Positions 23,222 to 50,850 of a stretch of DNA of 64,000 bases are shown one piece after another. Source of the stretch: Amphiscolops sp. MND2022 (lineage: Eukaryota). Position numbers and translations under genes: made by a program. Position 1 is the first letter of the stretch. Each line of letters starts with the position of its first letter. Below the pieces are notes generated by a model. It ran no database searches and was not told the origin of the DNA. It saw only the letters and a list, made by a program, of their open reading frames with translations. The DNA is taken from contig OZ076409.1 of the NCBI GenBank assembly GCA_964187785.1, positions 54,376,001 through 54,440,000 of the forward strand, in the 5' to 3' direction.

Positions 23222-23558
23222 TGTTGTGTACACAATGTGATTAGATTAAAATAAACCAATAACAAGGCGCTTTGGCACAATAGCTTAGTGCGTTCGGTTT
23301 CCATTCCAAAGGTCTAGAGTTCGATTCCCGAAACCGTCAAATATTTGATACTTCTGAAAATACTAAAATATATTTTTCGAAAATATTCAATCAATTTGCT
23401 ATCTCGAAACTTTAATGTTTGCTGTTATTTGTAAACAATAATTTGTTCTTTTTTCTGTTGTCTGAATTTATTCACTGTGACCATTGTGAATGATAACATT
23501 GCTTTCAATAAAACTTTGCAAAACGGACTGTATTCACCCGAAGGCTTACAGTTTTACA
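23222..23558 (+). repeat. 5' LTR of element 1 (337 bp)
   Basis: tgttgtgtacac...gttttaca; no difference seen from 31966-32302. Confidence 0.97.
23266..23339 (+). ncRNA. tRNA-like (pseudo-tRNA) Pol III cassette in the 5' LTR of element 1
   Basis: 74 nt; acceptor GGCGCTT/AACCGTC pairs 6 of 7; D stem GCAC/GTGC; TCC at the anticodon position; B box GTTCGATTC; weak T and anticodon stems. Confidence 0.7.
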
Positions 23559-23575
23559 TGGTGGCCATAGAGAGG
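23559..23575 (+). promoter_or_regulatory. Primer-binding site TGGTGGCCATAGAGAGG
   Basis: Directly follows the LTR; starts with TGG, complementary to tRNA CCA; identical in element 2. Confidence 0.9.
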
Positions 23576-24356
23576 ACTTTTGTTTTATATCCTTCTCAAA
23601 ATCTTTCGAAATTTGACTACGACTGGTTCCGATTTCAGTTCAACTTACAGTTCGGAAGCTGAAAACCCATTGGTACAAAACGACATTATCAAGTTCATTA
23701 CATTGTACATTGAGACAGAGCGTTGAGGAAAATTAATGGTATCAAAGCAAGCAGGCTGGCAATGGAATTTCGACTATTCAGTGAAGAGAAGAGAATTACA
23801 TGCACATTCTGCCAACTGTAGGTGATCTCCCAACAATACTGAAGACTGAATTTCTTAAAAGAGTAAGACGAGCATATTTCGTCTTCAAGAGGCGACCTTC
23901 GCTGAAAATAAAATTGTTATTCAAGAAATTATTCAAGTTATAAGCAAGTTATTCAAGAAGTGTCTCTGGATTTCTTGATGACCGAGTGCTTCCCCATCCT
24001 TCACTCCCCAGCATGAACAGAAGAACTGTGTCTCCTTTTGTTGGTCACGACAGTTGCCCTTTCTAGTGAGTTCCCGCGAAAAAACATGAAAACTGAGTAC
24101 TTCTTTTAATGTTTAATCTTCGAGATAGCAACTAAATTTCAAAATATTTGTATCGTCTGAGCTTGGTAACTCAGATGGCTGTTGAAATTTGATTGATCCA
24201 GATCCATCCATATTCACTTTTTGTCGAACAAAAGTACCTTAATACCGAAAATATTTTTGGACAAATTTCGTAGAGAAACAAGGTGAGTGCATTTTAATTG
24301 GGAAATTTAAATTTTTGTTACGAAAAAACTCTGGAACTGTATTAGATAACTCTCTA

Positions 24357-24965
24357 ATGGTTTTCATATTGGCAGCTAGTTCTTTGCACCATGCATTAGA
24401 AACGTTATCCCCCAAACAAAAAGACCGATTTAAAGACAAAACCTATACCATCCCGGGCCTAAGTCTAAATCCGAACACGAAAAACCCCAAAAAAGTTGTT
24501 CAAAATTTACTTTCGAAAGATCTGAAAGATAAAAAAGACATTGTAATTTGGCACGATGTACTGAACAATAGTATTTCGAAACATGATAGCAACAATTTCC
24601 GTGCTTTATCAGTGTTTGATCTAATTGAGACTTTGAAAAATCTTCAAGACAAGCTTTGTGCTCTGGTGTATTGCCAACGTAACCGCACCCCGTACATTTT
24701 CGACGAATTGAAAGTTTTGCAAACTGATCATAATATCAAAGTGTTCAGTATCGTCAAAGATTTTATATCCGTGAAAAAACAAAAGGATCCCGAGATTCTT
24801 AAACAATTCAAGGCGTTGCATCAGAGCCCAGAGCTTGAGCTGAAGAATTTGGTCTTTGTTCTTCGTAAAGAGAATCATCTCTCGACAATAACTGATAAAA
24901 GCCGACCCAAACGGCCAAGTAAGCGTGCCCGTAACGCTGCTAAGAGAGCTGCAGCCTCTTTTTAG
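24357..24965 (+). CDS. Accessory ORF0 of element 1 (202 aa); putative divergent SGNH-fold protein with a basic tail
   Basis: ATG at 24357 aligns with the ATG at 42873; gapless alignment, ~64% identity by hand count; motifs ILAASSL, IPGLSL, IVIWHDVLNN, ALHQS. The ORF is well supported; the function is inferred. Confidence 0.85.
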   Translation: MVFILAASSLHHALETLSPKQKDRFKDKTYTIPGLSLNPNTKNPKKVVQNLLSKDLKDKKDIVIWHDVLNNSISKHDSNNFRALSVFDLIETLKNLQDKLCALVYCQRNRTPYIFDELKVLQTDHNIKVFSIVKDFISVKKQKDPEILKQFKALHQSPELELKNLVFVLRKENHLSTITDKSRPKRPSKRARNAAKRAAASF

Positions 24966-24998
24966 TCTCAGTTAGCAACACCCCCCCGCGCTTCTTCC

Positions 24999-25354
24999 AG
25001 CTGTTGAGACAGTGTCCGAACTTCACTGATCGGTTGAAGTTTCTTCAGCTCTTCCACCTTTTTTTTCAGAGTTGTGTCCAGTCTTAACTGACTGGTTGAT
25101 ACTCTGAAAAAAACGCCTTTCCCTCACCCACACCACCGTCAACTGAGACCGCGTTTCTTCAACGCGACTTTGAGTTCATCGTCTTCCGTCCTCGTAGTCT
25201 GTGACTACTTTTAACTTAAAACAAAAAGCCGCCAGTTTTTCTTTGTTGAAACACTGTACAAACACAGTGTTGTCACCGACAAACACCGTTCTTCTACCGA
25301 ACTTTTTCTTGAACTGTGTCCAAACTTAATTGTTTGGTTCACGTCTGAAAAAGT
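24999..25354 (+). ncRNA. Three copies of a conserved cis-acting RNA stem-loop (24999-25050, 25060-25113, 25301-25354)
   Basis: Outer stem, NGTGT, 6-bp stem, TT(A/C)A(T/C)T loop, stem, TT(G/C)AN, outer stem; compensatory changes between copies. Confidence 0.75.
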
Positions 25355-25390
25355 ACAAAAGCCCACCGATCCTCAAATTTAGCTACGGTC

Positions 25391-28300
25391 ATGTCTGACC
25401 CCGTTAACGAAAAGGTGCAAAAGTTGTATGACAGTCGCGCGAAAGCCGAAGCCGACTTGAACAGATATCAAAAGGACGTGACAGAAGCAGTAAACAATGC
25501 CGACAGACGCGTCCGCGTCGAACGGTTGGTCACTTCTTGCGAAGAGGCTATGACAAAAGCTTTCGCTAAGAACGAACAGCTACTCGAGCTTGCCAAGAAA
25601 ACCAACGATCCGGCAACTGTCACAGCGGACTTAGAAAGTTGGTTGAACGTCACGAGCATACAAAATGATGAAATTTTGAGAAGCGCAAGGGAATATATCG
25701 ACCAATGTCCCAAAACAGATAATTCTTCACAAACTTCAGTCAAAGCTGTCACCGTGAAGACCAAGTCCAGCAAAGCTTCAAGCAGCAAAGTTTCGAAAAC
25801 CTCAAGTCAGCGACAACGAGACTTGCTTATTGCCAAACACAAGCGAGAAGAAGTTGAACGGCAAAACGAAGCTGCTTTACGATTAGCTAAGCAAAAACAA
25901 GAGCTCGAGCTTGAACAACTGCAAGAAGAGAACCGCAAACGACTTGCCGAAGCGCATCTAGTTGAACTTGAACTTCAGGAAGACCCATCGGAAGCTAACG
26001 AAGATGCTCATGAGATTCTTTCGCGGTTGAGCAGAACAACAGATGCTAGCGAAACGCGCCGAGTTAGTGACTGGGTTAGCAACTCGCCAATCGTTACCAC
26101 GACTCAACATGAGACAGTAACAGCAGTGACTGCAAGTCTAGCGACTTCTGTCGCAAATACTACCGTTTCCATCCCATCTCACCCACCTCCGGTTAATGTC
26201 TCTCAGCCGACTTCCGCACCAGGTGATCACAACGAAACAAACGTGGCAGTACAACTACCAACAACTACCGTTCCATCAATGAGTTTAAATCACACTCCTG
26301 CGGTACAAACTCAGACTCCTCCATTTACAGCGCAAAACTTGGGGAATATCGGACCTTCAACATCAGCTGTCATAGTACAACAACAAGTTCAACCGACAAT
26401 CATCCCGACCCAAACTGGAAGTTTCAATGCGCAAGTTTTACCGCCACAAACGACAGCACGGATGCCCACGTTCACAATGCCGGTGAATCACATCCTCCCA
26501 AACTTGTCCGCATGGACCTTCCCGAACCCGACCGTTACCACCGCACCAATTGTAACAACAATTCCGCCCCCGACACAGCCGACGGCACCTACTTTCATGC
26601 CGCTCGCTCACGCGCCAACCTATGCCGCTCCGACCGTACCCGTTACCGCTGGTGGAACTGTTTATTATGTACCACCAGCAACCGTTACAACGCCAATTGT
26701 GTACAGTGCAGTAGCACAACCTACGACTTCTCTTAGTCCGACAGCCGCTACATTTGTGCCAGCCGGAACGTCGACGACTATGCAACCAAGCACAACCGGA
26801 TTCACGTTACAAGATCTTGCCTTGTTGTTAGCTTCAACGAAGAAAGACCATTTGCCGGAGTGGAAACTAGCCCAATACAACGGCGACCCGATTCAATGGC
26901 ATGAATGGTTCGGCCAGTTCCAAAGTGCCATAGACTCAGCTCCACTCACCGATGACGTCAAGTTAACATACCTCAAGACTCTTGTAACAGGCAAAGCAAA
27001 GACTGCAATTGCTGAATTTGCTTACTGCGGAGCAATGTATAGAGATGCCCTAAAGACACTAGAACGAAAGTTTGGACAGCCGCAGGCTGTAGTAACTGCT
27101 TATCTGGATAAGTTGGCAAACTTTCCACCTGTGAAGATGCACAACAGTGAGAGCATCATCAGTTATTCAGCAATCATCTGTTCTCTAGTTGGGGTCTTCC
27201 GCTCTCTAAACTACGTCCAAGACCTGGCGAGCACATCATTGCTTGGACAAGCCGTACAAAAGCTTCCGCCAAACATGAAAGAAGCATGGTCATTGCACAC
27301 AGTGAGGCGAACTTTGGACAGACCGACACTCATTGATTTCAATGACTGGCTCAAAGACAAAGCAGAAGCGCATGAGCGTATGAAATCTCTGCCCAACAAA
27401 GCGAAACCTGAAGAAAGTAGCAACGTGACTGTAACTAAGACCAAGACTGCTTCTAAGGTTTTCGCCGCGACGACTTCTAGTCAACAAAGTGCCAGCGCTA
27501 AAGTTAAGAGTGACAAACCGCCTAACACTTGTGCCGCTTGTAAGGAAAAACATCCTTTGTGGAGGTGTCCAGCATTTAGAGCGAAAACACCCACAGAAAG
27601 AGCAAAACTTGTAGCTGACAATAAGCTTTGCTTTTCATGCTTCAACCAGAACCACACGTTTCGCCAGTGCCCGCAACCCCGCAAGTGTACGAAAGATGGA
27701 TGCGGGAGTTCACACAACACTTTCTTGCACGGAGCCGACAGAATTTTTGCCAAGAAAGCCACTTATGTGAACAAAGACAAAACTGAAACATCTGGTTGTA
27801 TTGGAACGTCAATGAGCAACGAAAGATCGGACGAGAGCTCAGGCATGCCTTCCGTTGCCGATGTCAAAGGCCTCTTACAAGTAACGGAAGTTGAACTTCT
27901 TGCGAACGGCAGAAGTGAAAAAGTCTTGGCACTGTGTGACTCCGCCTGCAGCCATTCCTGGATCTCAGCAAATCTGGCAACGAAGTTGAACGTTCATGGC
28001 ACCCCGACCAAGCTTACTGTCCATGGCATAAATTCCAACCAAGTCGTAGACACGCAACTGGTGGAGCTTAAGTTGACACCCGTTCATTCGGGTGGCTCTT
28101 GCTCTCCCTTTGTTGTTAAACCGTACGTCAGGGAAGACCTCAAAGTCGGAACTGACACCATCGACGTCGAACTTTTGAAAACCAAGTACCCCCATTTGCA
28201 ACCAATCTCTTTGAAAAAGTACAGCTACGCTGATGTTGAAATGATCCTAGGTCAGGATGTTTTCCACTCGATCCGCCCGCTGGAGTATTTCGATTCCGAC

Positions 28301-31300
28301 CGCAAAAATGCTCCAGTTGCCGTTCGCTTACCGTTGGGTTGGGTTTTGAGTGGACCGCTCCCCTCGTCCTCAGGTCTCTATTCAACTTGTTTTAAAGCAG
28401 TCGCTTGTAACAAAGAATTGGACTCCGAACTTGCCGACCAACTCCGAAGCTGGTACGATATTGAATCGTATGGAGCGTACAAACAAGTAGATTCGCGTTC
28501 CGCTGCCGACGCGAGAGCGCTGAAAATACTTGAAGAAACAACTTACCACGATGGTAACCGATACCATGTGGGAATGTTGTGGACCGAAGCCGACAGTAGT
28601 TTGCCGAATAACTACTTTTCCGCGCTCGTGCAGCTAAAATCATTGGAACGTCGCCTCGACAAAGACCCTGAATTGAAACAACTTTATGCCAAAACAATTC
28701 ACGACGACTTCAACAAAGGGTACATCACCAAAGTTGACAAAAGCGACTGTTTCAAATTAGACCAACCCCGCGAGTGGTACCTGCCACACCATCCTGTAGT
28801 GCACCCGCACAAACCTGGCAAAGTTCGCAGAGTATTGAATGGCGCAGCAAGGTTCCAGGGCCAATCTTTGAACAACGCCTTGTTAACCGGACCGGACTTG
28901 CTACAAAGTTTGATACACATACTGATCCGCTTTCGTCAACACAAGTACGCCGTCTCTGCCGATATCGAAGGTATGTTTCTTCAAGTTGGAGTCATACCAA
29001 AAGATCAACCTTCACTTCGTTTTCTGTGGCGGGAAGACCCAGCTGCAGAAATCGCTGTGTATCAGTACGTCCGGCACATCTTCGGGTCGAAGGACTCACC
29101 AACATGTGCGAACTACGCACTGAAGCGTACTGGTAGCGATAACCAAGACACTTTCCCTGAAGCAGCAAAAAGCGTTCATCGCAGTTTTTACATGGACGAC
29201 TACTTGGAGTCAAGCCCTACTGTCGAAGAGGCCAGTAACAAAGCAAAGGACTTGGTCACACTGCTTGCAAAAGGTGGCTTCAATCTAACCAAGTTTGTCT
29301 CCAACATTACCCACCTTCCAGCCGAACTGCAACAAAGCGGTGAACTAACACCAACTGATGGGAAGGTGATTCCGAAACCAGACGAGTCCTCACATGTCTT
29401 GGGACTTAAATGGAATCATGCCTGTGATACCCTCGTAGTAAGTCGGGGAACGAGCCCCGCTACGAACGAGAAACTTACTCAACGAGTGGTGCTGAGCGTA
29501 GTTTCAGCTGTCTACGATCCCATTGGACTCGTTGCTCCGTTTACCGTCCAAGCAAGACTGTTGTTGAAAGACATCTGGAGATTAAGTGGTCAACAGTGGG
29601 ATGACGATCTGCCAGACGAAATCGTAACAAAGTTCAACGAATGGAGCAAGGAGCTGCCAACTTTGAGCGAAATTCAAATCCCACGGAGTTATTTCGAAGA
29701 GCGAGTCGAAACCTTGGAGCTTCATATGTTCGGTGACAGCTCTCAAGATGTCTTCAGCGCCGTCGCCTTTCTACGAGGAAAAGTTGCCACCGCGACTGGT
29801 TACACCACAGAGTTAGCCTTCGTCTTCGGGAAAGCCAGAGTGGCACCCATGAAGGCCCTTACAATCCCGAAGCTCGAACTGCAAGCATCGTTGCTTGCCG
29901 CACGACTCCGAAAGGAAATCGAAAATGCTCTAACGGTCACAGTTGACAACACTTTCATGTGGACGGACAGTACGACGGTCCTTCAGTGGCTCCATTCATT
30001 AGAGAAGCAACCAGTGTTTGTCACTAACCGTGTTGCCGAAATCCTGGAATTAACAACGGTGGATGAATGGAATTATGTCAAATCAAGTGACAACCCCGCT
30101 GATGCAGGAACGCGTGGTCTTTCAGCCAACTCACTTCGTGACAGTCCCTGGCTCAAAGGTCCTTCATTCTTGCGGACACACGACTGGCCGTTCGAACCAC
30201 CAAAAGACGTTGAGATCAGATTGAAAGCGAAAAAGTCGGATCTTCCCAGTTCCGATCAAGAAACTTCGGAATTTTTGACTGCTTTAAGTGCAACTGTGAT
30301 CGGCATCGCGACAACTTTCGAGTGGCAGAAGTACAGCTCGTACGAGAAACTTCTGCGCGTTGTTGCTTACATCTTGCGCCTACTGCCAAAAAACGAAGGT
30401 TACCGATCCGACTCTGGCTTAGTAACTGACCCGAATGAAATGCGAAATGCTGAAATGAGACTTTTCTATCTCATCCAACAAGAGTCATTTCCCGTCGAAC
30501 TGAAGTGCTTGCTGAAACAATCCCCCGTCAGCAACTCTTCCAAACTCTCCCAATTCTCTCCTTTCATTGGGCCTCGAGGCCTACTGCGAGCAACCGGTCG
30601 GACCAAACAACTAACAGTTTCCAACTTCGACGCAAAACACCCTATTTTACTGGACAGCCGTCACCCCGCCGTACGCTTGTACTTAGAGCAGCTCCATGAA
30701 ACGCATTGCCATCAGGGTGTCGACTACATGAGGGCGTTGGTGCAGCAACAGTTCGCCATCGTCAAGCTTAGAACCGCCCTGAGGTCAATTGTCTCCAAAT
30801 GTGTCACTTGCCGCAAACGTCGAGCGGAAACTCTTAACCCGATAATGTCCGACCTTCCTCGGGAAAGACTGGCATTCAAAGAGCGTCCATTCACGAACAC
30901 CGGGATTGACTATTTTGGTCCGTTTTACGTAGCTGTGAAGAGATCAACTGAAAAACGATGGGGATTCCTATTCACTTGCTTAACAACCAGAGCTGTCCAC
31001 TTTGAAGTTGTTCCGTCAATGGACACTAGTAGCTGTGTTATGGGGATCGAAAGATTTGCCGCCCGTCGGGGCGTCCCATCTGTTTTGTGGTCCGACAACG
31101 GAACCAATTTTATCGCCAGTGAAAAGGAGTTGCTACAAAACGTGTCAGCGTGGAATCAACAGACTCTGTCAGAAGCTTTGGTCAAAAAACGGATCCACTG
31201 GAAGTTCAATCCCCCCAGTGCTCCTCACCACGGAGGTGTCTGGGAACGAATTGTCAGGAGCTTCAAACACGTTTTTTATGCAATTCTTGGAAACCGTCGC

Positions 31301-31798
31301 CTAACGGACGAGATACTAACAACTACCTTTTGTCTGGTAGAGCAGAGTCTCAATTCCCGTCCACTAGTACCCGTTAGCGCCGACGCTACGGATTTGGACG
31401 CGTTGACACCAAACCACTTCCTGTTGGGAACCGCGGGTTCCACAATGCCATCTCACCAAAGAGCCGACGTCGACCACAAAAAACGCTACGCACGTGCGCA
31501 AGCGTACTCAGATGCAATTTGGGACCGTTGGTTAAGAGATTACGTTCCGTCGCTTAACCGCCGTTCAAAGTGGTCAACCCAACCAGATCGAGATCTCAAG
31601 ACCGGAGACCTTGTCTGGATTGTGGAGCCTACGAGTCCACGAGGACATTACCCACTTGCACGTGTGGTTAAACTCAACTACGGTACCGACGCTGTCGCTC
31701 GTTCTGCGGAACTGAAAACCGCAACAGGAAACCTTGTTCGACCCGTTGTCAAACTCGCACCCGTTTTCCCGTCCCCCGATTCTCCCAACCTTACTTAA
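25391..31798 (+). CDS. gag-pol: BEL/Pao Gag-Pol polyprotein (gag with 3 Zn knuckles, aspartic protease, RT, RNase H, integrase)
   Basis: LPEWKLAQYNGDPIQWHEW gag motif; CxxC knuckles; CDSACSHSWI protease; WYLPHHPV, ADIEGMFLQ and YMDD RT motifs; KARVAP/TIPKLEL RNase H region; GIDYFGP, SDNGTNF and GGVWER integrase motifs. Confidence 0.97.
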   Translation: MSDPVNEKVQKLYDSRAKAEADLNRYQKDVTEAVNNADRRVRVERLVTSCEEAMTKAFAKNEQLLELAKKTNDPATVTADLESWLNVTSIQNDEILRSAREYIDQCPKTDNSSQTSVKAVTVKTKSSKASSSKVSKTSSQRQRDLLIAKHKREEVERQNEAALRLAKQKQELELEQLQEENRKRLAEAHLVELELQEDPSEANEDAHEILSRLSRTTDASETRRVSDWVSNSPIVTTTQHETVTAVTASLATSVANTTVSIPSHPPPVNVSQPTSAPGDHNETNVAVQLPTTTVPSMSLNHTPAVQTQTPPFTAQNLGNIGPSTSAVIVQQQVQPTIIPTQTGSFNAQVLPPQTTARMPTFTMPVNHILPNLSAWTFPNPTVTTAPIVTTIPPPTQPTAPTFMPLAHAPTYAAPTVPVTAGGTVYYVPPATVTTPIVYSAVAQPTTSLSPTAATFVPAGTSTTMQPSTTGFTLQDLALLLASTKKDHLPEWKLAQYNGDPIQWHEWFGQFQSAIDSAPLTDDVKLTYLKTLVTGKAKTAIAEFAYCGAMYRDALKTLERKFGQPQAVVTAYLDKLANFPPVKMHNSESIISYSAIICSLVGVFRSLNYVQDLASTSLLGQAVQKLPPNMKEAWSLHTVRRTLDRPTLIDFNDWLKDKAEAHERMKSLPNKAKPEESSNVTVTKTKTASKVFAATTSSQQSASAKVKSDKPPNTCAACKEKHPLWRCPAFRAKTPTERAKLVADNKLCFSCFNQNHTFRQCPQPRKCTKDGCGSSHNTFLHGADRIFAKKATYVNKDKTETSGCIGTSMSNERSDESSGMPSVADVKGLLQVTEVELLANGRSEKVLALCDSACSHSWISANLATKLNVHGTPTKLTVHGINSNQVVDTQLVELKLTPVHSGGSCSPFVVKPYVREDLKVGTDTIDVELLKTKYPHLQPISLKKYSYADVEMILGQDVFHSIRPLEYFDSDRKNAPVAVRLPLGWVLSGPLPSSSGLYSTCFKAVACNKELDSELADQLRSWYDIESYGAYKQVDSRSAADARALKILEETTYHDGNRYHVGMLWTEADSSLPNNYFSALVQLKSLERRLDKDPELKQLYAKTIHDDFNKGYITKVDKSDCFKLDQPREWYLPHHPVVHPHKPGKVRRVLNGAARFQGQSLNNALLTGPDLLQSLIHILIRFRQHKYAVSADIEGMFLQVGVIPKDQPSLRFLWREDPAAEIAVYQYVRHIFGSKDSPTCANYALKRTGSDNQDTFPEAAKSVHRSFYMDDYLESSPTVEEASNKAKDLVTLLAKGGFNLTKFVSNITHLPAELQQSGELTPTDGKVIPKPDESSHVLGLKWNHACDTLVVSRGTSPATNEKLTQRVVLSVVSAVYDPIGLVAPFTVQARLLLKDIWRLSGQQWDDDLPDEIVTKFNEWSKELPTLSEIQIPRSYFEERVETLELHMFGDSSQDVFSAVAFLRGKVATATGYTTELAFVFGKARVAPMKALTIPKLELQASLLAARLRKEIENALTVTVDNTFMWTDSTTVLQWLHSLEKQPVFVTNRVAEILELTTVDEWNYVKSSDNPADAGTRGLSANSLRDSPWLKGPSFLRTHDWPFEPPKDVEIRLKAKKSDLPSSDQETSEFLTALSATVIGIATTFEWQKYSSYEKLLRVVAYILRLLPKNEGYRSDSGLVTDPNEMRNAEMRLFYLIQQESFPVELKCLLKQSPVSNSSKLSQFSPFIGPRGLLRATGRTKQLTVSNFDAKHPILLDSRHPAVRLYLEQLHETHCHQGVDYMRALVQQQFAIVKLRTALRSIVSKCVTCRKRRAETLNPIMSDLPRERLAFKERPFTNTGIDYFGPFYVAVKRSTEKRWGFLFTCLTTRAVHFEVVPSMDTSSCVMGIERFAARRGVPSVLWSDNGTNFIASEKELLQNVSAWNQQTLSEALVKKRIHWKFNPPSAPHHGGVWERIVRSFKHVFYAILGNRRLTDEILTTTFCLVEQSLNSRPLVPVSADATDLDALTPNHFLLGTAGSTMPSHQRADVDHKKRYARAQAYSDAIWDRWLRDYVPSLNRRSKWSTQPDRDLKTGDLVWIVEPTSPRGHYPLARVVKLNYGTDAVARSAELKTATGNLVRPVVKLAPVFPSPDSPNLT

Positions 31799-31953
31799 TC
31801 TGTAATAATTCTCCGTTTTTGTTCTCACTTGTAATCGTACCTAATTTGAATAAAATGTAACATGTACATCATCGAAAATCCATGTAAACCGTTTTTCGAA
31901 AAAAAAAAAAGTTTCCTTCTCAATTCCAATGTTTCTTGCATTCACATCTTCTT

Positions 31954-31965
31954 GGGCCCGGAGGA
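31954..31965 (+). promoter_or_regulatory. Polypurine-tract-like primer GGGCCCGGAGGA
   Basis: Abuts the 3' LTR; the 25-mer ttcacatcttcttgggcccggagga is identical in both elements. Confidence 0.8.
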
Positions 31966-32302
31966 TGTTGTGTACACAATGTGATTAGATTAAAATAAAC
32001 CAATAACAAGGCGCTTTGGCACAATAGCTTAGTGCGTTCGGTTTCCATTCCAAAGGTCTAGAGTTCGATTCCCGAAACCGTCAAATATTTGATACTTCTG
32101 AAAATACTAAAATATATTTTTCGAAAATATTCAATCAATTTGCTATCTCGAAACTTTAATGTTTGCTGTTATTTGTAAACAATAATTTGTTCTTTTTTCT
32201 GTTGTCTGAATTTATTCACTGTGACCATTGTGAATGATAACATTGCTTTCAATAAAACTTTGCAAAACGGACTGTATTCACCCGAAGGCTTACAGTTTTA
32301 CA
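31966..32302 (+). repeat. 3' LTR of element 1
   Basis: Direct repeat of 23222-23558, followed by TSD ATCAC. Confidence 0.97.
32010..32083 (+). ncRNA. tRNA-like cassette in the 3' LTR of element 1
   Basis: Same sequence as 23266-23339. Confidence 0.7.
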
Positions 32303-33579
32303 ATCACTGAATAGAAGTAACCTTTACAGTGAAAAATGAGCCTTAGCTCAGTAACTCAAATATTGATGCAGTTTTGCCAAAGAAATTAAAATTTTGAACG
32401 TTTTTCGTCCTATTAGACTTCAATTTTAAAAGGACGTAAAAAGGAAGCTCGAAACAAATTGTTTTTTTTCTCTGTGATAAAGTTGAAGCTTGGTGAAGAA
32501 TTTGAGTTTTCAAACTTTTGGTGAACAAAAGTTTTCAATAACGATTTTTTCGTCATTATGCAAAACGTTCCGGTTATATACGCTTGAATAAAGCTGATTT
32601 TTAGTTTGCGTAAATTTGAACTCAATTTATTGGAAATCTAAATTCAGGAGATGAAAAACGTTTCATCAGCAAACAAATAGTCACATCATCAATGCAATCA
32701 GTGGTATTGTTCGAACCACTATCGTTATTATTACTGGAAACTTGATTCACGCTTTCATGCGTGGTGAAATACAACATTATTTTCTGTGAATTTTGCTATA
32801 TTTAGTGTGATTCAGCGTGAAATTTGCGTTTTTTCAATTGCCCTCATGAATAATGCTTAGCATTAGAAGAAACCAGCAAAGTTCAGTAGACTCAATGTCG
32901 AATATAGAGATAGTTCATGTCCTTCTTTGCGTTTTTTTGCACTTCTTGTTCCTGTAATTAAAAATAATTTTAAGAAAATCATAATTTCGGAAATACGTGA
33001 TTATAACGTTATATCCGTGATTGGTGGACTAAAGGGGCGTTTTTTTCACAAAAGTTTCACTTTCGTTTTTCCGCGATTTTCTCAAATGCCTGCTACTTCG
33101 AAAGTTAGTTGTTTCAAATGTAGTTGATTTCAAGAAAAAAGAGAAAAGCGAGAAGAAAAACTCTTTTAGCTTGACTTGAAAAAGCTTTAATCCAATTCCA
33201 AAGAAGCTGAAGAGCTGTTTCCATAGAAATTTTGAACTCTCACAGTGCCGGAAAAAAGTTTTCGAAAAATCACACAAGGCCAAAAAACTCCAAAAGGGAC
33301 ACCCTTAGGGGTTGGAAAAAAACTTTTTTTTCTAGAAATATCAAAGAAATCAAATAATTTGTGTAATTTTGAAATTTTCGATAAAAAAAGTCTCACATAG
33401 CCGAAAAGGAACGTTCACAAGGTTTTGAAATCCGAATAAGCGTTTAAAAAGTGTGACAGATGCGCCATTCAGCCAAACATGGTTATAGCGTACCTCATCG
33501 GGCGGGAGACCGAACGATCGCTATAAAGAGTTTTACTTTATAAAGAGGTTAATTGTTTGCCGAAAGGAACCAGCCAAAT

Positions 33580-41037: not shown

Positions 41038-41357
<320 letters not shown>

Positions 41358-41712
41358 AGCCATGCCGACCGCTCAAGCCACGATACCATGCTTCCTAAAA
41401 AGGTGCTAAAAAGTCGCATTTCTTCATTAGACCTTGGATTTCAGGCCGAAAAACTTTGTAACATTAAACAAAACGTGTATAAAAAGATTAACAATTCAAG
41501 TAAAAATCAATGTTTTACTAACTTGGCACGAATTTTACCGGTACTTTTTTCATGAAAGTTTATATAACGCCGGAATATAAAACGCTTAGATAAATATTAT
41601 TTCGTCATGGAGCTCTGTGGATATTCAACGTGACGAAAATATTTGAAAATTTGAAACTGAAAACAATAAAAATTTCTGGTCTTTTTTGTTTGTTTTTTTT
41701 TCATAAGTTTCA

Positions 41713-42084
41713 TGTTTGCAAGCAATAAGAATAAAAGTAAACAGAAACTGATCTTTTCAGCGGCGCTATAGCTTAGTGGTTAATGCGTTGGCATTCGAAT
41801 ATTACAAAAGGCGTTCGGATTGGGTTCAATTGCCGGACATGTAAAAATATTTCATATTTTGAAAAAAATTTTTGATTTCGGTAAAATAATCTTGAAAAAG
41901 GCCTTGCTATTTATGTTTACTGTTGTTATTTTTGTTGACTAATATTACTTGATCTTTTGCCAGTTGTGTCATATTACTATATACATTGTTTGATTCAGTT
42001 TGCGACCGTATATAGCCATATTCAATTGACTTTTGACTCTCAAAACAATCTATAGTGGAACCGGCAATTCTATAGTCTATTTCA
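41713..42084 (+). repeat. 5' LTR of element 2 (372 bp)
   Basis: About 12 substitutions and 1 indel relative to the 3' LTR, by manual comparison. Confidence 0.95.
41762..41842 (+). ncRNA. tRNA-like Pol III cassette in the 5' LTR of element 2
   Basis: A box TAGCTTAGTGG; B box GGTTCAATTGC (GGTTCAATTCC in the 3' LTR); acceptor and anticodon arms are degenerate. Confidence 0.75.
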
Positions 42085-42101
42085 TGGTGGCCATAGAGAG
42101 G
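42085..42101 (+). promoter_or_regulatory. Primer-binding site TGGTGGCCATAGAGAGG
   Basis: Identical to the element 1 PBS; directly follows the LTR. Confidence 0.9.
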
Positions 42102-42872
42102 CATATACATATACCTGTTTGATATATCTGTTACATGTACCTCACTTAGCTTCAATAACTCCTTCCTTCATCGCTTCCATTACTCACAACTCTGGAGGGT
42201 AGAGCAATAAGAAATTGGATCGAACTTGCAGCTCTGTGTCGGGAAATATGAACCTCATCGGAGACGCTTCTACGATTCAGTGTGAGAAACACTTTAGACA
42301 CTGTGTATGCACCGGCACCCGCTAAGGAAGAGTTTACCCAACAATTCAAGAAAGCGACCCGCTGTACCCGAACTTGTGAATCCCAGACGCCAGCCTGTGT
42401 CGCACTAGACGACGTACTATGACTTCTCAAAGTGACGTAACCTGCCGAAGGTGAATCGCTACCCACTACCCGAAGACTGCAAAACGGTTATGTTCGAGAC
42501 AAAAAAACTTTAAAAACTGAATAAAACTAGAACTTGTGCTACTTTCATAGCAAGGCCTTTGAAAATCCGTTGATATTACTTAACGTGCTTATCAAAATTG
42601 AAAGTTGATTAGAGCGGTAAAAAATTTCTTCTGAGTGGAAATTTTTGTCTTTTGTGCTTTGTGAGAAAAACAACTCAGGTACCTTTACGGTCGATCAGTA
42701 TCGAAAACCCAGTGACCCAATTTGGAAGCCTTTAATGTAATCCGAATGTAGCCTAATCCGAAAAAAATATCGTAAATTAGCATTTGCATCCTTTCACAAG
42801 AGGTGACGAAAAAGAAACATTTCTCATCGGATTTTTCAAAAACTTTCCATATTCCCATCGAAAAAAAACCTA

Positions 42873-43490
42873 ATGGTATACATTTTAGCGGCAAGGTCCG
42901 TTGATCATGCTCTTAACACCCTAAACCCCAAAAACCGAAAAACCTATAAAGAGAAAATTTTCCCAATCCCGGGCCTGAGCCTTAACCCCAACACGGAAAA
43001 TCCCCGAAAAATTGTGCAAAACTTGCTCTCTAAAGATCTTGCCGAAAAAACTGACATCTTTATTTGGCATGATGTGCTGAATAATAGCATTTCTAAGCAC
43101 GAGAGCAATAATTACCGAGCATTGATCGTTCCCCAATTGCTAGATATTTTGAAATCTTCCGAAAACAAACTCCGGGCTCTAGTGTATTGCCACCGAATCC
43201 GTACCTCGAATATTTTACCGAAATTGAAGGAAATTGAAAAAACCACCAACATTAAAGTGTTCAGTATCGTTGATGATTTCATTTCCACGAGAAAACAGAA
43301 AGATCCCGACTTTCTTAAAAAACTCAAGGCGTTACACCAGAGCCACGAGATTGAAATAAAGCATATTGACTTTTTTCTGAGAAAAGAGAGCGAGCTTGAC
43401 GCTATCACCGACAAAAGCCGCCCCAAGCGGCCTAGTATGCGCGCCCGAAAGGCAATCAAGAGTGCAGCGGCAGTCGCTGCTTCGTCCTAG
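42873..43490 (+). CDS. Accessory ORF0 of element 2 (205 aa), homologue of 24357-24965
   Basis: Open frame sharing IPGLSLNPNT, IWHDVLNNSISKH, ALVYC, KALHQS and ITDKSRPKRPS. Confidence 0.85.
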   Translation: MVYILAARSVDHALNTLNPKNRKTYKEKIFPIPGLSLNPNTENPRKIVQNLLSKDLAEKTDIFIWHDVLNNSISKHESNNYRALIVPQLLDILKSSENKLRALVYCHRIRTSNILPKLKEIEKTTNIKVFSIVDDFISTRKQKDPDFLKKLKALHQSHEIEIKHIDFFLRKESELDAITDKSRPKRPSMRARKAIKSAAAVAASS

Positions 43491-43509
43491 ACCCCCTTCA
43501 ACTGTCTTC

Positions 43510-43959
43510 ACTGTACTCTAGTTACGGTGTCTGGACTTCATTGTCGGGTTGAAGTTTCTACAGTAGTTTACCCGTCTTCTTGAGTTGTGTCCGGACTTAA
43601 TTGTCCGGTTGATACTCAGAAGTCTACTCCCCGTCTTTCTTCCTGCCGTTTGGACAGTGTCCAGACTTAATTGTCTGGTTGAAGTCCTTTCGGCCTTCTT
43701 CCGCCCCATGGACACTTAATATTGGACGAACCATTGTCCTTTCGGGAAGAGCGTGTTTTAAATCATCGTCTCGTCCCATGTAACTTCTTCCTGTGTCTTG
43801 TAGTTACTTTTAAAAAACAAAAAATCGCAAAACTACTCTACCGTTGCTGTTATCGTGAGATACAGCTCCCATCATCCAAAACACACCGTTACCGTTAACC
43901 CAAAATTTCTCCGTTCAGCTGTGTCTAAGCTTAATTGCTTGGTTGACGCTGTCGAAGAA
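43510..43959 (+). ncRNA. Four copies of the conserved stem-loop (43510-43564, 43576-43622, 43645-43694, 43907-43959)
   Basis: Inner stems ctggac/gtcggg, ccggac/gtccgg, ccagac/gtctgg and ctaagc/gcttgg around TTCATT or TTAATT loops. Confidence 0.75.
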
Positions 43960-44035
43960 GTTACTCCTCGATCTATTTGATTTAACACTTTCCTTACTAC
44001 ATTGATTCATTCTCTAACAAAAGATCACGACAAAG

Positions 44036-47000
44036 ATGACCGACACCAGACAAGACAAAGTTAGAAAACTTTTCGAAAGTCGTGCCAAAGCTGAGACCGA
44101 GTTACAAAGATTGCAAAAAAACTTCAAGATGCCGTGGAGAACAAAGATAGACGTGTCCGCGTCGAAAGACTTGTTACTTCCTGCGACGAAGCGATGACGA
44201 AACTGTTTGCCAAACATGAACAACTTTTCGAACTCGCTGGCAAAACCGAAGACCCATCACTTGTTAAACAAGATTTGGAAACTTGGTTGAATGAAGTGAC
44301 CACTCGAAACGATGAGATTTTGAAGAAGGCTCCTGATTACATTGATCAATGCCCACTAGTCGATGGAGCATCTCAATCGTCAACGACTGTCTTCAAGAGC
44401 AAGCAACCAAGCAAAACGTCTGCTTCAAGAACATCCACACAATCGAGAACCTCCAGTCAACGACAAAGAGACTTGTTGATTGCCAAGCAACGTAAGGAGG
44501 AGATAGAAAGGCAAAACGAAGCCTCCCTTAGAATTGCAAAGAAACAGCAGGAGCTGGAACTCGAACGTCTACAGGAAGAACAGGAACTACTTAGACTGAG
44601 GACCGACCGACTTAAGAAAGAACAAGCACTTCGAGTTGAACAGTTAGAAGAAGAACACCGAAAGAAATTAGCTGAACCAACACTCACTGAGCTTGAACTG
44701 ACCGAGGACTTGTCGGACTCTCAATCGGAGTTTCTAGACACAGTTTCACAACTAGCGGCTTCGACTAAAGCCGACGATACTGTCCGAGTCAGCGACTGGG
44801 TTAGCAATTCACCCGTTGCTACTGCAAGTGATCCCACAAACACCGTTATTTTGGAACCGAACGTTGCTATCGTCACTACCGCAGCACAAAATTCAGTCAA
44901 CAGAGGACCTCCTACAACAACACCAACACCTAGCTTCCCAGTAGTGACTCCTGTAGCCCCCCCCAACAGCTACAGCGACTAGCAATATGCATTTAGCTAC
45001 AGGACCAGGTTCAATAGTTTCCCTACCAAACACTGGCCACGTCCAGGTTCCCCAGTTGACCACAACGTTTCAGGGGACAAATGCTACATCGGTTTGCAAA
45101 CAACTGTTTCAGCCTCAGCTCCTTTGGCAACCGCCACGTCAATGCCGATTTCAACAGTCACCGTTCCCGCAAGTCATGTTCTTCCGAATTTATCAGCCTG
45201 GACGTTTCCGACAGGACCAAGTAACCCGACCTGTGTTTCCGACAGTTTTACCGGCTACTAGTGTCACCCAACAGCTTCGCTTGTTATCCCAGTCACCGCT
45301 GGAGGAACAGTATACTATATTAACCCGACGTCTCTAGCAACTGTGCCCGCACCGAGCAGCGCACCAGTACCGACTACTTTCCCGGCCGTTCCTTCAACAG
45401 CAACACTATTGGCAACTCCTCCATTCGTCACTGTACCGCAACCCGCTACTACCAGTTTCACTATCCAAGATCTTGCGCAACTGTTAGCGTCCTCGAAAAG
45501 GGATCACCTCCCTGAATGGAAACTGGCCCAGTACAGTGGAGATCCACTTCAATGGCACGAGTGGTTTGGCCAGTTCAAGAGTGCCATCGATTCAGCCCCT
45601 CTTACCGATGACGTGAAACTGACCTACCTGAAGACACTGGTGTCCGGTAAGGCGAAAACTGCTACCGCCGAGTTTGCATACTGCGCTACTATGTACAAAG
45701 ACGCGCTGAAAACGTTGGAACGAAAGTTTGGGCAGCCTCAGACTGTTGTCAGTGCCTACCTCGACAAACTTGCCAACTATCCGCCAGTAAAGATGCACAA
45801 TAGCGACAGTATCATCAGCTATTCTGCCACAGTTTCCTCATTGGTTGGTGTTTTCAGATCCTTGAACTACCTGCAGGATCTGTCGAGTGCTTCTCTCCTG
45901 GGCCAAGCGGTTCAAAAACTTCCACCAAATTTGAAGGAAGCGTGGTTGATGAACACCGTCAAACGGAATCTGGATCGGCCGACCTTGATTCACTTTAACG
46001 ATTGGCTAAAGGAGAAGGCAGAGGCACATGAAAGAATGAAAGCCGCCTCCAGTAAACCAAGATCCGAAGAAGTTCCTGTCACTACCGTAACCAAGACGAA
46101 AACAGGAACCAAGATTTTTGCGGCGACCACCAGTAAGCAAGGGAACGCTGCTACCAAGGTTAAAAGTGAGAAACAATGGGTCGCTTGAAAAGACAGTCAC
46201 CCCCTTTGGCATTGTAGAGTGTTCCGCCGAAAAACTCCGACAGAGAAAACCAAGCTAGCCGCTGAGAGCAAACTTTGCTTTTCTTGCCTAAACGAAGGGC
46301 ATTCATTCCGGCAATGCCCGCAACCAAGAAAATGCGCAAAAGACAGCTGTAGCAGCTCTCATAACACCATACTTCACGGGTCCGACAGAATTGTTCCACA
46401 GAAAAATCCCGGCGACGCGAAAAATTCTCAAAGTAAAACGCCAAAGGTCAGCCAAAGACAAACAGGCAGCGAAAGCTCCGGCATGCCTTCCGTAACCGAC
46501 GTCAAAGGCTTGTTGCAAATAACAGAAGTCGAATTGACATCGCCGTCGAGCTCTGCTAAAATTCTTGCTCTATGTGACTCAGCTTGTAGTCATTCATGGA
46601 GCTCGAGAAGATTAGCCGACAAGCTACAAGTTAAGGGCTCAGCAACCAAGTTAACCGTACATGGGATAAACTCCCAACAACTTATCGACACGGAAACAGT
46701 TGAGCTTAAGTTGACACCCGTTCATTCGGGCGGCTCTTGTTCATCCTTTTCTGTCAATCCTTACGTCCGAGACGATTTGAAAGTTGGAAACGACATTATC
46801 GACGTTGACAAACTGAAAACGACTTACCCGCAGCTAGAACCGATCCCCCTCAGCAAGTACAGCTATTCAGACGTTGAGATGATCCTTGGTCAGGATGTCT
46901 TCCACTGTATCCGCCCATTGGAGTACTTCGAAGCCGACCGTCCGAATACTCCGATAGCCGTCCGTTCACCGTTGGGTTGGGTACTGAGTGGTCCGCTTCC

Positions 47001-50000
47001 TTCCACCACGGGTCTTTTCTCGACTTGTTTCAAAGCTGTCGCTAACTCAGAGAACGATTCTATTCTTGCAGAACAACTTCGCACCTGGTACGACATTGAG
47101 TCATATGGTGCCTACAAACAAGTTGACTCTCGCTCTGCAGCCGATGCGCGAGCGATGAAAGTCCTCGAAGAAACGACATTCAACGATGACTGCCGTTACA
47201 AAGTTGGAATGTTGGGGCCGACGAAGAAAGTACGTTGCCGAACAACTACTTCTCGGCTCTTGTACAACTTAAGTCGTTAAAACGTCGCCTCGGAAAAGAT
47301 CCTCAACTGAAAGAGAGTTACAGCAAGACAATCAGAGAGGACTTCGAGTCCGAATGTTTCCGTACCGATAACCGTCGTGAGTGGTAATTGCCAGATCACC
47401 CCGTAGTACACCCGCAGAAACCAGGCAAAGTGAGAAGAGTTCTCAAGGGTGCTGCAAAGTTCCATGGACACTCTTTGAACAACGCCCTTCTAACCGGTCC
47501 CGAACTACTGCAAAGTTTGATCCATATCCTCTTCAGATTCCGTCAATTCCCCAAGGCCGTGTCCGCCGACATTGAAGGCATGTTTTTACAAGTGGGAGTT
47601 ATACCGAAAGACCAACCGTCCATTCATTTTTTGTGGCGGGAGGATCCATCAACTGAAGTTGCTGTTTTTCAGTACGTAAGACACATCTTTGGGTCGAAAG
47701 ACTCTCCGACTTGCCCAAATTACGCTCTGAAGAGGACCGCAACCGACAACGCCGACAAATTTCTGAAAGCCGCTCAAAGCGTGCAGACGAATTTCTACAT
47801 GGACGACTACCTCGAGTCTAGTCCCACTGCCGACGAAGCTACCCAGAAAGAAAAAGACTTAGTGAAATTGCTTTCGCTGGGTGGATTCAATTTAACTAAA
47901 TTTGTGTCTAACGACCGATACATCTTGCAACAAATCGAACCAAATTCTGAGTGCCAACCCAACGATGGTAAACAGTTACCGACAACTGAGGAATCACCGC
48001 ACGTACTTGGCCTCAAATGGAACCACGTCTCGGATACACTTGTTGTTAGCCGAGGCACCACTCCCGACACAAAACGAACTGTTACTCAACGAGTTGTTCT
48101 CAGCCTCGTCTCCGCCGTGTACGACCCTATTGGACTCGTAGCACCGTACACCGTGAAAGCCCGACTTCTGCTGAAAGACATATGGAGACTGAGCGGCCAG
48201 AAATGGGATGATCTTCTTCCGGAGGTCACTGTAACCAAGTTTCTGGACTGGAGTTCTGAATTGGGAACTCTTGGTGAACTCGTGATTCCAAGAAGTTACT
48301 TCCAACAAAATGTCGAGTGTTTGGAATTACATATGTTTGGTGACAGTTCGCAAGATGTCTTTAGTGCCGTAGCGTTCCTCAGAGGGAAAATCAACACTGG
48401 AAATAGCCTTTGTGTTTGGCAAAGCACGAGGTGCGCCAATGAAAGCACTTACCATTCCCAGACTCGAACTGCAGGCCGCGTTACTCGCTGCAAGATTGAG
48501 GAACGAAGTACAACGCGCGCTCACTTTGCAGATTGATCGAACATTTATGTGGACTGACAGTACTACGGTCCTTCAGTGGCTACATTCTCTTGAGAAACAA
48601 CTGGTGTTCGTAGCAAACCGTGTTGGGGAGGTACTCGAACTGACAACTACAGATGAGTGGTACCACGTGCAATCCGCCGACAACCCTGCTGACGCCGGAA
48701 CTAGAGGTTTGTCTGCCAAGAATCTTCTGCAAAGTAGTTGGTTAAATGGCCCCGAATTCCGGAAAACAGATGAATGGCCTTTCAAGCCTTCCGAAGACTT
48801 CCGACAGAAACTGAAGCAAGTAAAACCGGATCCGACTGACGAACTAGTTCCTAAGTCTTCTTTAATGCTTTGCGAAATCCAAGTTGCAATTGCAAAAACT
48901 TTCGAGTGGCAGAAGTATTGCTCATACGAGAAACTCCGGTGCATTGCAGCCTATGTTTTGCGGCTCTTACCAAAGAACAGAGACTACAGGACTATCACTG
49001 GTGCCATTATGCACCCAGCCGAACAACGTCTTTTCTACCTGAGTCAGGCGGAATCATTCCACATTGAAAAAATTAGTTTCCTGAAGTCAACCCCGCTCAG
49101 TAAAACTTCCAAACTCGCCCAATTTTCTCCCTTCATAGGACCCAACGGGCTCCTAAGAGCTTCTGGTCGAACAAAAAACCTTGACGTTGCAACATTCGAT
49201 GTGAAACATCCCATTCTGTTGGACGCCCGACATCCCTTGGTTCGACTCTTGTTGGAACACACGCACTTTCAACATTGTCATCAAGGTGTTGACTACCTCC
49301 GCGCTTTGATACAGCAACATCTTGCGGTGGTAAAACTGCAAGCAACTTTGAGAACAATAGTTTCGAGGTGTGTTACATGCCGCAAGCGAAGGGCTGAAAC
49401 CGTTACTCCAGTGATGGCGGACCTCCCGCGAGAAAGACTTGCTTTCAAAGAACCACCTTTCTCGAACACTGGTGTAGACTATTTTGGACCCTTCTTTGTA
49501 ACCGTGAAGCGCTCCACTGAAAAACGTTGGGGATTCCTTTTCACATGTCTGACAACTCGCGCCGTTCACTTTGAAGTAGTTCCTAGCATGGACACCAGTA
49601 GCTGTGTGATGGGAATAGAAAGAGTTTGTGTCCGTCGTGGATTCCCATCAGTAATCTGGTCCGACAATGGAACAAACTTCGTTGCTAGCGAGAAAGAACT
49701 TTTGTCCAACATCAACAACTGGAACCAGTAAGTCCTCGGAGATACACTTGTAAAGAAAGGCATAAAGTGGAAATTTAACCCACCAAGTGCTCCCCATCAC
49801 GGAGGTGTTTGGGAACGCCTAGTTCGTAGCTTCAAGCACGTTTTTTATGCCATTTTAGGAAACCACCGTTTGACAGACAAAATCTTGACGACCACGTTCT
49901 GCTTGGTAGAACAATGTCTCAATGCTCGCCCAATCACTCCCGTGAGCCCTGAAGCTACTGATCTCGACGCTCTTACACCAAACCATTTTCTCCTTGGAAC

Positions 50001-50360
50001 TGCAAGTTCAACATTGCCATCACACTTCCGCCCTGAAATAGACCATAGAAAGCGATACGTTCGAGCCCAAGCGTTCTCAGACGCAATTTGGAATCGTTGG
50101 CTCAAGGAGTACGTTCCAAACCTCAACCGTCGCTCCAAATGGTCCAAGTCGTCAGCCCGAGACCTGAAAACCGGAGATCTCGTCTGGTTAGTCGAACCGA
50201 CCGCACCAAGAGGACACTACCCACTTGGTCGCGTAGTGAAGTTAAATTACGGCACCGATGCCATCGCCCGTTCAGCCGAAGTCAAGACATCTACCGGAAA
50301 CCTTGTTCGCCCAGTTGTCAAGCTCGCTCCCGTTCTCCCCATTCCCGAACAAACTTTATA
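44036..50360 (+). pseudogene. gag-pol: Disrupted BEL/Pao gag-pol of element 2
   Basis: ATG at 44036 (MTDTRQDKVRKLFESRAKAE) aligns with the element 1 N-terminus; fragments starting at 44134, 45343, 46219, 47388, 48412 and 49870 are collinear and separated by frameshifts or stops. Confidence 0.95.
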
Positions 50361-50479
50361 TTTTTGTTTTTGCTCCATTTCACCGTACATTATTTACATT
50401 ATTATATTTCATGTAACATGTAAAAAAAAGGTTTTTGTTTGATTGATCCGTTTCTTCACATCTTCTTGGGCCCGGAGGA

Positions 50480-50850
50480 TGTTGGCAAGCAATAAGATTA
50501 AAAGTAAACAGAAATTGATCTTTTCAGCGGCGCTATAGCTTAGTGGTTAATGCGTTGGCATTCGACTATTACAAAGGCGTTCGGATTGGGTTCAATTCCC
50601 GGACATGTAAAAATATTTCATATTTTGGAAATAATTTTTGATTTCGGTAAAATAACCTTGAAAAAGGCCTTGCTATTTATGTTTACTGTTGTTATTTTTG
50701 TTGACTAATATTATTTGATCTTTTGCCAGTTGTGTCATATTACTATATACATTGTTCGATTCAGTTTGCGACCGTATATAGCCATATTCAATTGACTTTT
50801 GACTCTCAAAACAATCTATAGTGGAACCGACATTTCTATAGTCTATTTCA
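50480..50850 (+). repeat. 3' LTR of element 2 (371 bp)
   Basis: Follows gggcccggagga; ends ...tatttca, then TSD TTTCA. Confidence 0.95.
50529..50608 (+). ncRNA. tRNA-like Pol III cassette in the 3' LTR of element 2
   Basis: Consensus A box TAGCTTAGTGG and B box GGTTCAATTCC; T arm TTGGG/CCCGG. Confidence 0.78.

Follow-up and report, generated by a model that had tools for sequence, protein, structure and literature searches.

An SGNH-like gene and a covarying hairpin array mark a BEL/Pao clade of Amphiscolops whose LTRs carry an optional tRNA-like unit

Two long terminal repeat (LTR) retrotransposons of the BEL/Pao type lie in a 64,000-nucleotide stretch of the 1.07-Gb genome of Amphiscolops sp. 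MND2022 (assembly GCA_964187785.1, contig OZ076409.1, positions 54,376,001 to 54,440,000; hereafter the window, to whose positions the coordinates below refer unless another locus is named). Besides gag-pol, both carry a tRNA-like unit in the LTR, an open reading frame (ORF) for an SGNH-like protein upstream of gag (ORF0) and an array of RNA hairpins. An earlier note on this DNA proposed that these three modules are conserved as one system. Do they belong together, and what could they do? We find that ORF0 and the hairpins are tied to each other within one clade, and that the tRNA-like unit is dispensable there. We favor, with a probability of roughly 0.6, a captured transposon-type esterase whose basic tail would serve localization of the ribonucleoprotein (RNP) or particle at membranes, combined with a cis-acting hairpin signal, a cyclization duplex and an optional RNA polymerase III (Pol III)/TFIIIC cassette.

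Element A (23222-32302) and element B (41713-50850) are separated by 9.4 kb that fall outside the feature, and all their parts lie on the plus strand in the same order: LTR, primer-binding site (PBS), leader, ORF0, hairpin spacer, gag-pol, polypurine tract (PPT) and LTR. In A, the 337-bp LTRs (23222-23558, with TG...CA ends, and 31966-32302) are 100% identical and flanked by the target-site duplication (TSD) ATCAC (23217-23221, 32303-32307). The PBS (23559-23575) is followed by a leader of 798 nt, ORF0 (24357-24965, 202 amino acids [aa]), three hairpins, gag-pol (25391-31798), intact with 2149 codons in a single open frame, and the PPT (31954-31965). In B, the LTR pair (41713-42084 and 50480-50850) shows 96.5% identity and the TSD is TTTCA (41708-41712, 50851-50855). 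Its PBS (42085-42101) precedes a leader of ~790 nt, an open ORF0 (42873-43490, 205 aa), four hairpins, a gag-pol (44036-50442) broken by stops and frameshifts into 7 long frames, and the PPT, which with the 3' LTR spans 50468-50850. PBS and PPT are the same in A and B, and the two ORF0 proteins are 64% identical. Mapping of these parts confirmed two separate insertions with differing TSDs and one layout. The LTRs are indeed mostly dissimilar, LTRs and leaders being barely alignable, but the subfamilies are less diverged than the earlier note implied, with 73% identity in reverse transcriptase (RT)-RNase H.

The Pfam domains of gag-pol follow the order DUF1759, Asp protease, RVT_1, Peptidase_A17 (1.8e-41), Integrase_H2C2 and DUF5641, in agreement with the proposed BEL/Pao identity of both elements. 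Protease, RT, RNase H and integrase lie within one gag-pol ORF, and TG...CA LTRs, a short TSD, a tRNA PBS and a PPT, as in Belpaoviridae, are all present.

How widespread is this layout? A genomic pattern for the hairpin, in which three inner pairs were left unconstrained, gave 1062 matches versus 0 in the control, and from the first 100 listed we took 10 loci on chromosome 1 with differing hairpin variants. A search of the genome for ORF0 gave 3473 first-look candidates, of which 150 were scored. All 10 hairpin-first loci (2-4 hairpins each) had ORF0 and all 30 closest ORF0 loci had 3-4 hairpins, so that the association held in 40/40 clade loci examined, bearing out the suspected tie between the two. 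RT-RNase H identity to A was 60-77% in nine of the 10 hairpin-first loci (70-77% barring one decayed copy), the tenth offering a stretch of just 41 residues. Six other BELs of the same genome, taken as top Pfam RNase H matches, were 29-34% identical to A, and neither an ORF0-family gene nor the hairpin was found in them. Because of this, the layout marks one tight, abundant BEL/Pao clade and not BEL/Pao generally; the RT-RNase H tree comprises elements of this genome alone. Short LTR-pair loci checked as non-autonomous derivatives proved to be one tandem duplication and one internal deletion and were uninformative.

In the 54-nt hairpin unit, an outer stem of ~11 bp leads through a 5x5 internal loop to an inner stem of 6 bp, which is capped by a hexaloop starting with UU. 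The two strands of the internal loop (GU-rich and UUGA) are nearly invariant. When 34 selected copies were aligned without gaps, 87.7% of cells paired, compared to 33-42% for slid partners, and 13 of the 17 pairs showed two-sided change, which substantiates the covariation seen by the earlier note. The covariation score was equalled by 0/500 shuffles; a measure counting pairs was not significant (137/500). By eye, most of the 100 listed genomic matches also pair at the three unconstrained inner positions. In the window, the hairpins of A (24998-25051, 25060-25113 and 25302-25355) and B (43513-43566, 43573-43626, 43643-43696 and 43907-43960) fold better than all 200 shuffles in five of seven cases, the weaker ones being the first of each array (A1 matched by 4/200, the first of B by 18/200). 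A covariance model scored the window copies at 49-73 bits, and in 34 other loci (LINE, that is long interspersed nuclear element, other BEL, Helitron-like or without context) it found nothing above 14 bits barring one match of 28.7 bits. That match (L037, 4178-4227) lies inside a LINE RT frame, resembles the outer stem and internal loop, lacks the inner stem and is possibly due to chance. An Rfam scan over the hairpins gave no match at E up to 1. A further spacer feature, composed of TCGTC, a small stem, TTTTAA and an A-rich run, was seen by eye between the hairpins in several subfamilies (window ~25170-25230 and ~43760-43830).

ORF0 is a genuine conserved coding gene under purifying selection, as the earlier note had supposed: among 32 open copies, the pairs with an estimable ratio of nonsynonymous to synonymous substitution rates (dN/dS) gave 0.06-0.29, and A versus B gave 0.14 at dS 1.8. 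One might hold that the accessory pieces descend from one ancestor and ride along neutrally, A and B being close relatives by RT-RNase H. The dN/dS of A versus B at this dS argues against it, as do the compensatory stems and an LTR-leader complement (see below) that persists amid unalignable leader sequence. Neutrality is thus refuted for ORF0 and the hairpins and possible for the tRNA-like unit, and as an account of all the pieces we find it barely credible.

An AlphaFold model of ORF0 (predicted local distance difference test [pLDDT], 96.5) had its best structural matches among SGNH/GDSL hydrolases (Z 11.4, root mean square deviation 3.1-3.6 over 142-157 residues). In a wide structural search an SGNH hydrolase was again on top (Z 10.9), with the OSK domain of Oskar lower (Z 7.9), and a language-model atlas returned GDSL clusters as leads. 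These predicted-structure matches support the SGNH-like nature first read from the sequence. Sequence searches of the family against Pfam and PDB found nothing credible, with no Pfam SGNH match among 71 members, and Foldseek with the first ORF0 model gave no match at E 0.001 or better. The family counts 813 clusters at 50% identity. In an alignment of 71 diverse members (mean column identity, 28%), the SGNH positions of blocks I, II, III and V, as assigned by motif position, are kept as Ser in 67, Gly in 65, Asn in 66 and His in 69; the ORF0 of B deviates at the putative nucleophile position. The C-terminal tail consists of at least 30% K+R in 63/71 members.

These properties recall the esterase-type ORF1p of CR1/L2/RTEX LINEs, exemplified by ZfL2-1, an SGNH protein with an arginine-rich peptide (PMC3905857). 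Both have an SGNH fold, a peptide of this kind, a high pI, a place upstream of replication genes and a second His before the block III Asn. In ORF0 that His stands four to five residues ahead of Asn in 67/71 members, a spacing that fits the transposon-specific H191/N195 of PMC3905857; an equivalent of ZfL2-1 S228 was not identified among ORF0 members in this comparison by motif spacing. Unlike ZfL2-1-type ORF1p, ORF0 is a stand-alone gene of about 200 aa in an LTR element, its tail is C-terminal, no coiled coil was seen and the triad Asp is missing. By analogy with ZfL2-1 ORF1p, ORF0 may act as a weak lipid esterase and a binder of anionic membranes, while its basic tail would hold RNA and help to localize the RNP or particle.

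Is this gene peculiar to BEL/Pao? With a distant ORF0 query we obtained 12 matches on chromosome 1, four of which are closely followed by one of the listed hairpin matches (coordinates compared by eye). All eight without a hairpin were fetched: six lie upstream of LINE-type ORF1s and two upstream of the gags of other BEL lineages. The ORF1s are of the PHD plus zinc knuckle or the coiled-coil type, and the start of an endonuclease was seen in L032 and L033. Among 18 metagenome loci, seven had a LINE-type ORF1 and/or endonuclease-RT downstream, one a BEL gag and two Helitron-like surroundings, and eight were without usable context. The ORF0 family is therefore not BEL specific and is common to LINEs, other BEL lineages and Helitron-like neighborhoods. 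On a tree of 27 ORF0 rows, the BEL rows require three changes, and a single BEL clade is rejected by the approximately unbiased test (p-AU 0.023 with 11 own-genome rows; 2e-7 with a metagenome row added, where the large likelihood gap calls for caution). In the reading that we favor, a gene pool common to LINEs and Helitron-like elements would have supplied the BEL/Pao clade with a transposon-type SGNH esterase whose tail is rich in Lys and Arg; the clade, having captured it, would have kept it as a separate gene upstream of gag-pol.

Some side observations concern these other carriers. In LINEs of at least two ORF1 types (L031-L033 and L087-L090; L037, L039, L040 and L043-L047), the SGNH gene is a separate ORF upstream of ORF1. 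This arrangement, with a distinct PHD- or coiled-coil ORF1 following, is unlike ZfL2-1-type ORF1p. Several of these LINEs have a donor-like GT(A/T)AG sequence right at the end of the SGNH gene and a GGTT(G/T)G motif soon after, and L031-L033 have in common a CCTAAT...GTGATAAACTT motif upstream of it. In L049 and L050, ORF0-family genes adjoin PIF1 helicase and GIY-YIG frames; a platyfish Helitron likewise carries an SGNH hydrolase beside Helitron genes (PMC4021074), a likeness by description alone.

Two further BEL lineages bear on what the hairpins do. In the sister lineage L086, where an ORF0-family gene is accompanied by a related gag, the corresponding spacer holds a hairpin of another kind in two copies (L086 797-1100), whose motif has 76 genomic matches versus 0 in the control. 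The loop of this hairpin has CUUAA in common with the window hairpins. In a distant lineage (L076, L078/L084; stretches L076 1990-2790 and L084 375-1165), the PBS is immediately followed by another SGNH-like ORF of more canonical type, assigned to SGNH by motifs and atlas leads. In L076 this ORF and gag are separate, and in L084 they form one frame. This lineage too has its own two-copy structured motif between the SGNH-like ORF and gag. A profile comparison of this ORF with ORF0 found no similarity. No repeated spacer motif was seen with the ORF0 genes of L085 and L034.

Rev/RRE and N/boxB are models for a protein that reads an RNA structure. In the same way, and as the main rival of the favored reading, ORF0 and the hairpins could be a cognate protein-RNA pair, similar to Rev/RRE or lambda N/boxB. 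The tail would bind the invariant internal loop and thereby connect the genomic RNA with membranes, export or control of translation, and every SGNH-bearing BEL lineage would have evolved a cognate hairpin of its own. The constant association (10 of 10 loci in one direction, 30 of 30 in the other), the start of the first hairpin within ~50 nt of the ORF0 stop and the combination of invariant loops with covarying stems, as in a protein-binding site, would fit such a pair, as would the own spacer motifs of L086 (76 matches versus 0) and L076/L084. Furthermore, PMC3905857 speculates that the arginine-rich peptides of such proteins target specific RNA structures, and contains a remark on lambda N. 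On the other side, similar-tailed members of the family occur in LINEs, in L085 and L034 and in Helitron-like neighborhoods without a match to the hairpin, catalytic-type residues are conserved throughout the family, and descent also explains co-occurrence within one clade (RT 70-77%). Moreover, the ZfL2-1 esterase domain without the arginine-rich motif failed to bind oligo(A) RNA (PMC3905857). We hold the cognate pair to be a tentative and rather unlikely explanation. The broader version, in which several BEL lineages independently placed a basic-tailed SGNH esterase from an LTR/LINE/Helitron-like gene pool upstream of gag and each evolved a repeated hairpin that its protein recognizes, with a membrane-binding enzyme fold put to new use as an element-specific, Rev/N-like RNA adaptor for genome trafficking or gag-pol translation, appears to us equally doubtful.

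In the favored reading, the hairpins would instead act in cis, as a multivalent signal within the leader of gag-pol. A protein encoded by the element, with the Gag nucleocapsid a likelier candidate than ORF0, would read this signal for packaging and/or for the gating of ribosomes scanning through the spacer towards the start of gag. The spacer is strongly AUG poor: 19 ATGs were counted in 35 related spacers versus 191.5 expected, and 14 versus about 70 in 12 subfamily representatives (summed by hand), and these spacers are relatives and not independent samples. This depletion suggests that ribosomes scan the spacer to reach the gag AUG. As another possibility, we considered that ORF0 and the hairpins form an intron. 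The candidate sites in A, a good donor ahead of ORF0 and an AG preceding gag, are unconserved even in close relatives, and splicing was therefore rejected as a mechanism common to the clade.

The PBS of both elements is complementary to the 3' terminus of tRNA-like host genes, a family with 511 pattern matches genome-wide. The primer is probably tRNA-Ile(AAU), an isotype read from one degenerate gene copy that ARAGORN did not call. A tandem array of the PBS-complementary tRNA-like gene, with a period of ~215 bp, starts at ~50.90 Mb of G000:C3 and holds 99 of the 100 listed matches. Self-priming by the tRNA-like unit of the LTR was considered and rejected, the 3' end of the unit not being complementary to the PBS whereas the host family is.

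A second complementarity links the LTR to the leader. In A, a 13-nt leader site (24119-24131) is the exact reverse complement of an LTR motif (23396-23408; 3' LTR copy, 32140-32152), and in B a 14-nt site (42547-42560) complements the motif of its own LTR (41897-41910) in a different register. Such a motif of 11-15 nt with an exact reverse complement in the leader was found in 30 of the 34 elements with a located PBS, and with G-U allowed, 13 of 14 positions are kept in two of the four remaining elements. Matches occur in three registers, a C/T difference is matched on both sides, and the complement is kept though the surrounding leader cannot be aligned. The case for pairing rests on the constant position and the matched change. 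Since the LTR motif recurs in the 3' LTR, the duplex could circularize the genomic RNA for strand transfer, in the manner of Ty1, where the internal 5' site CYC5 is complementary to CYC3 in the 3' LTR (PMC7969010); the likeness lies in long-range complementarity between a 5' internal site and the 3' LTR, known here from sequence. The same TTGCTAT core recurs in the LTR of the L076/L084 lineage, where L084 appears to have it within a local hairpin.

The third module behaves differently. The tRNA-like unit lies at 23266-23339 in A (3' LTR copy, 32010-32083) and at ~41762-41845 in B. That of A matches the Rfam tRNA model at 39.2 bits (gathering score, 29); Rfam gave no tRNA match for that of B, ARAGORN found no tRNA anywhere in the window, and shuffled versions of the two units fold about as well as the units themselves (z -0.5 and -0.1). 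Among 41 loci surveyed, 39 LTRs were located, the two dropped being one duplicated locus without an LTR in view. The unit is present in 33 of them, L060 being counted from its sequence and a weak Rfam match, and missing in six, which belong to five LTR types (L014, L015, L062, L066, L068 and L070). Unit-less LTRs stand on at least three branches beside unit-bearing relatives; for L014 and L015 the placement comes from ORF0 identity. Near-full-length matches to the L014-type LTR number 24, and one pair of them, 8.8 kb apart, is identical over the 120 bases compared, indicating that unit-less elements were copied recently. Differing units were found on elements whose ORF0s are 98% identical, indicating that the unit was exchanged between subfamilies. 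In its 13 distinct versions, A and B boxes are retained while the middle is replaced; the B box, unlike the A box, was a search criterion.

Could the LTR nevertheless give rise to a small Pol III RNA on which ORF0 acts, all three modules forming one system as the earlier note suggested? This would be compatible with the presence of the unit in 33/39 LTRs, with its 13 versions that have recognizable A and B boxes and with the T-runs a short way downstream of it. However, the unit is missing in 6/39 LTRs on several branches with ORF0 and hairpins retained, tRNA-less elements have multiplied, the sequence between the boxes is freely replaced with no conserved cloverleaf, and the 3' end of the unit is not complementary to the PBS. 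The unit is thus optional and dispensable within the clade and assorts independently of the other modules, and the ORF0 family occurs elsewhere without the hairpin. The single conserved system is not sustained by these data, and a joint function of this kind is highly unlikely. Synthesis of the 9-kb RNA by Pol III is also unlikely, because T-runs follow the unit of A within ~35 nt. The unit may rather be an exchangeable, SINE-like (short interspersed nuclear element) Pol III/TFIIIC cassette near the LTR 5' end, with no partnership with ORF0. In this it resembles the Helenus/Cassandra/Ajax elements (TRIMp3, terminal-repeat retrotransposons in miniature), whose LTRs conserve tRNA-derived A/B boxes without a functional tRNA and keep the boxes while the middle changes (PMC10886601). 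TRIMp3 elements are 0.3-1.3 kb long, non-autonomous and non-coding, whereas the elements studied here share the boxes but code for gag-pol over 9 kb, with an optional unit and T-runs expected to stop Pol III.

Several points weigh against the favored combination. The position three residues before His, occupied by the triad Asp in DxxH, is mostly K/R/Q/A in the 71 ORF0 members, and catalysis by ORF0 is therefore uncertain; the SGNH residues were, in addition, placed by motif and not by residue-level superposition. Since the leaders hold 7-8 ATGs ahead of ORF0, its translation lacks an explanation. With weak support at its deep nodes, the ORF0 tree names no donor. Single LTR-leader matches just modestly exceed those of shuffles (mean lengths of 9-10, maxima of 10-14), and the AUG depletion comes from related spacers. 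Finally, two further SGNH-bearing BEL lineages have repeated spacer motifs of their own, and a cognate ORF0-RNA pair would account for this no less well than a signal read by Gag.

Precedents exist for every ingredient: SGNH domains in LINE ORF1p and in a bdelloid LTR ORF3, tRNA-like LTRs in TRIMs and upstream ORFs in MDG1. The GDSL/SGNH ORF3 of bdelloid Vesta LTR retrotransposons, common to Penelope-like Athena elements (PMC5408684), is likewise an extra SGNH ORF of a type common to several retroelement classes; there it is ORF3 of the Juno/Vesta lineages, whereas the BEL/Pao elements studied here have it ahead of gag and coupled to an array of hairpins. The sORF1 and sORF2 of MDG1/412 are also accessory, upstream of gag and under purifying selection (10.1101/2025.03.14.642691), but they are short (about 70-110 aa), unrelated proteins of Metaviridae, and the available text mentions no SGNH or esterase. 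The available parts of BEL-related papers mention env-like extras or none (PMC3118150, PMC13524379). Our search of the open literature, which had Repbase, Dfam, GyDB and supplements outside its scope, found no description of an SGNH ORF upstream of gag in BEL/Pao, of this hairpin or of a tRNA-like LTR unit in coding BEL. New here are the covarying 11-15-nt LTR-leader complementarity, the AUG-poor spacer and two further SGNH-bearing BEL lineages with spacer motifs of their own.

Elsewhere in the window, a remnant of another LTR element lies on the minus strand (56981-60937; 200-bp repeats, 87.5% identical) with an integrase zinc-finger match at 58588-59052. The intervals 3452-3715, 3758-4158, 18828-19625 and 54267-55036 hold a nearly perfect palindrome of 264 bp and copies of an interspersed repeat whose ends are inverted, similar to miniature inverted-repeat transposable elements. 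The window also has a diverged tandem repeat of ~185 bp (15398-16446) and a purine-rich simple repeat just 5' of element B (41017-41440).

For transposon-borne SGNH esterases, activity and lipid binding have been shown for one LINE protein, and the benefit to transposition is still open. Here the SGNH domain is a stand-alone gene, common to LTR and non-LTR elements of one genome, and stands beside a covarying RNA motif. A protein of 200 aa and an RNA of 54 nt make it testable whether the tail reads a specific RNA structure and whether such an esterase ties RNPs to membranes. tRNA-derived cassettes are shown in the LTRs of coding elements, beyond TRIMs. BEL/Pao, for which the available parts of the BEL-related papers describe no cis-acting RNA signals, gains candidate packaging/translation and cyclization signals.

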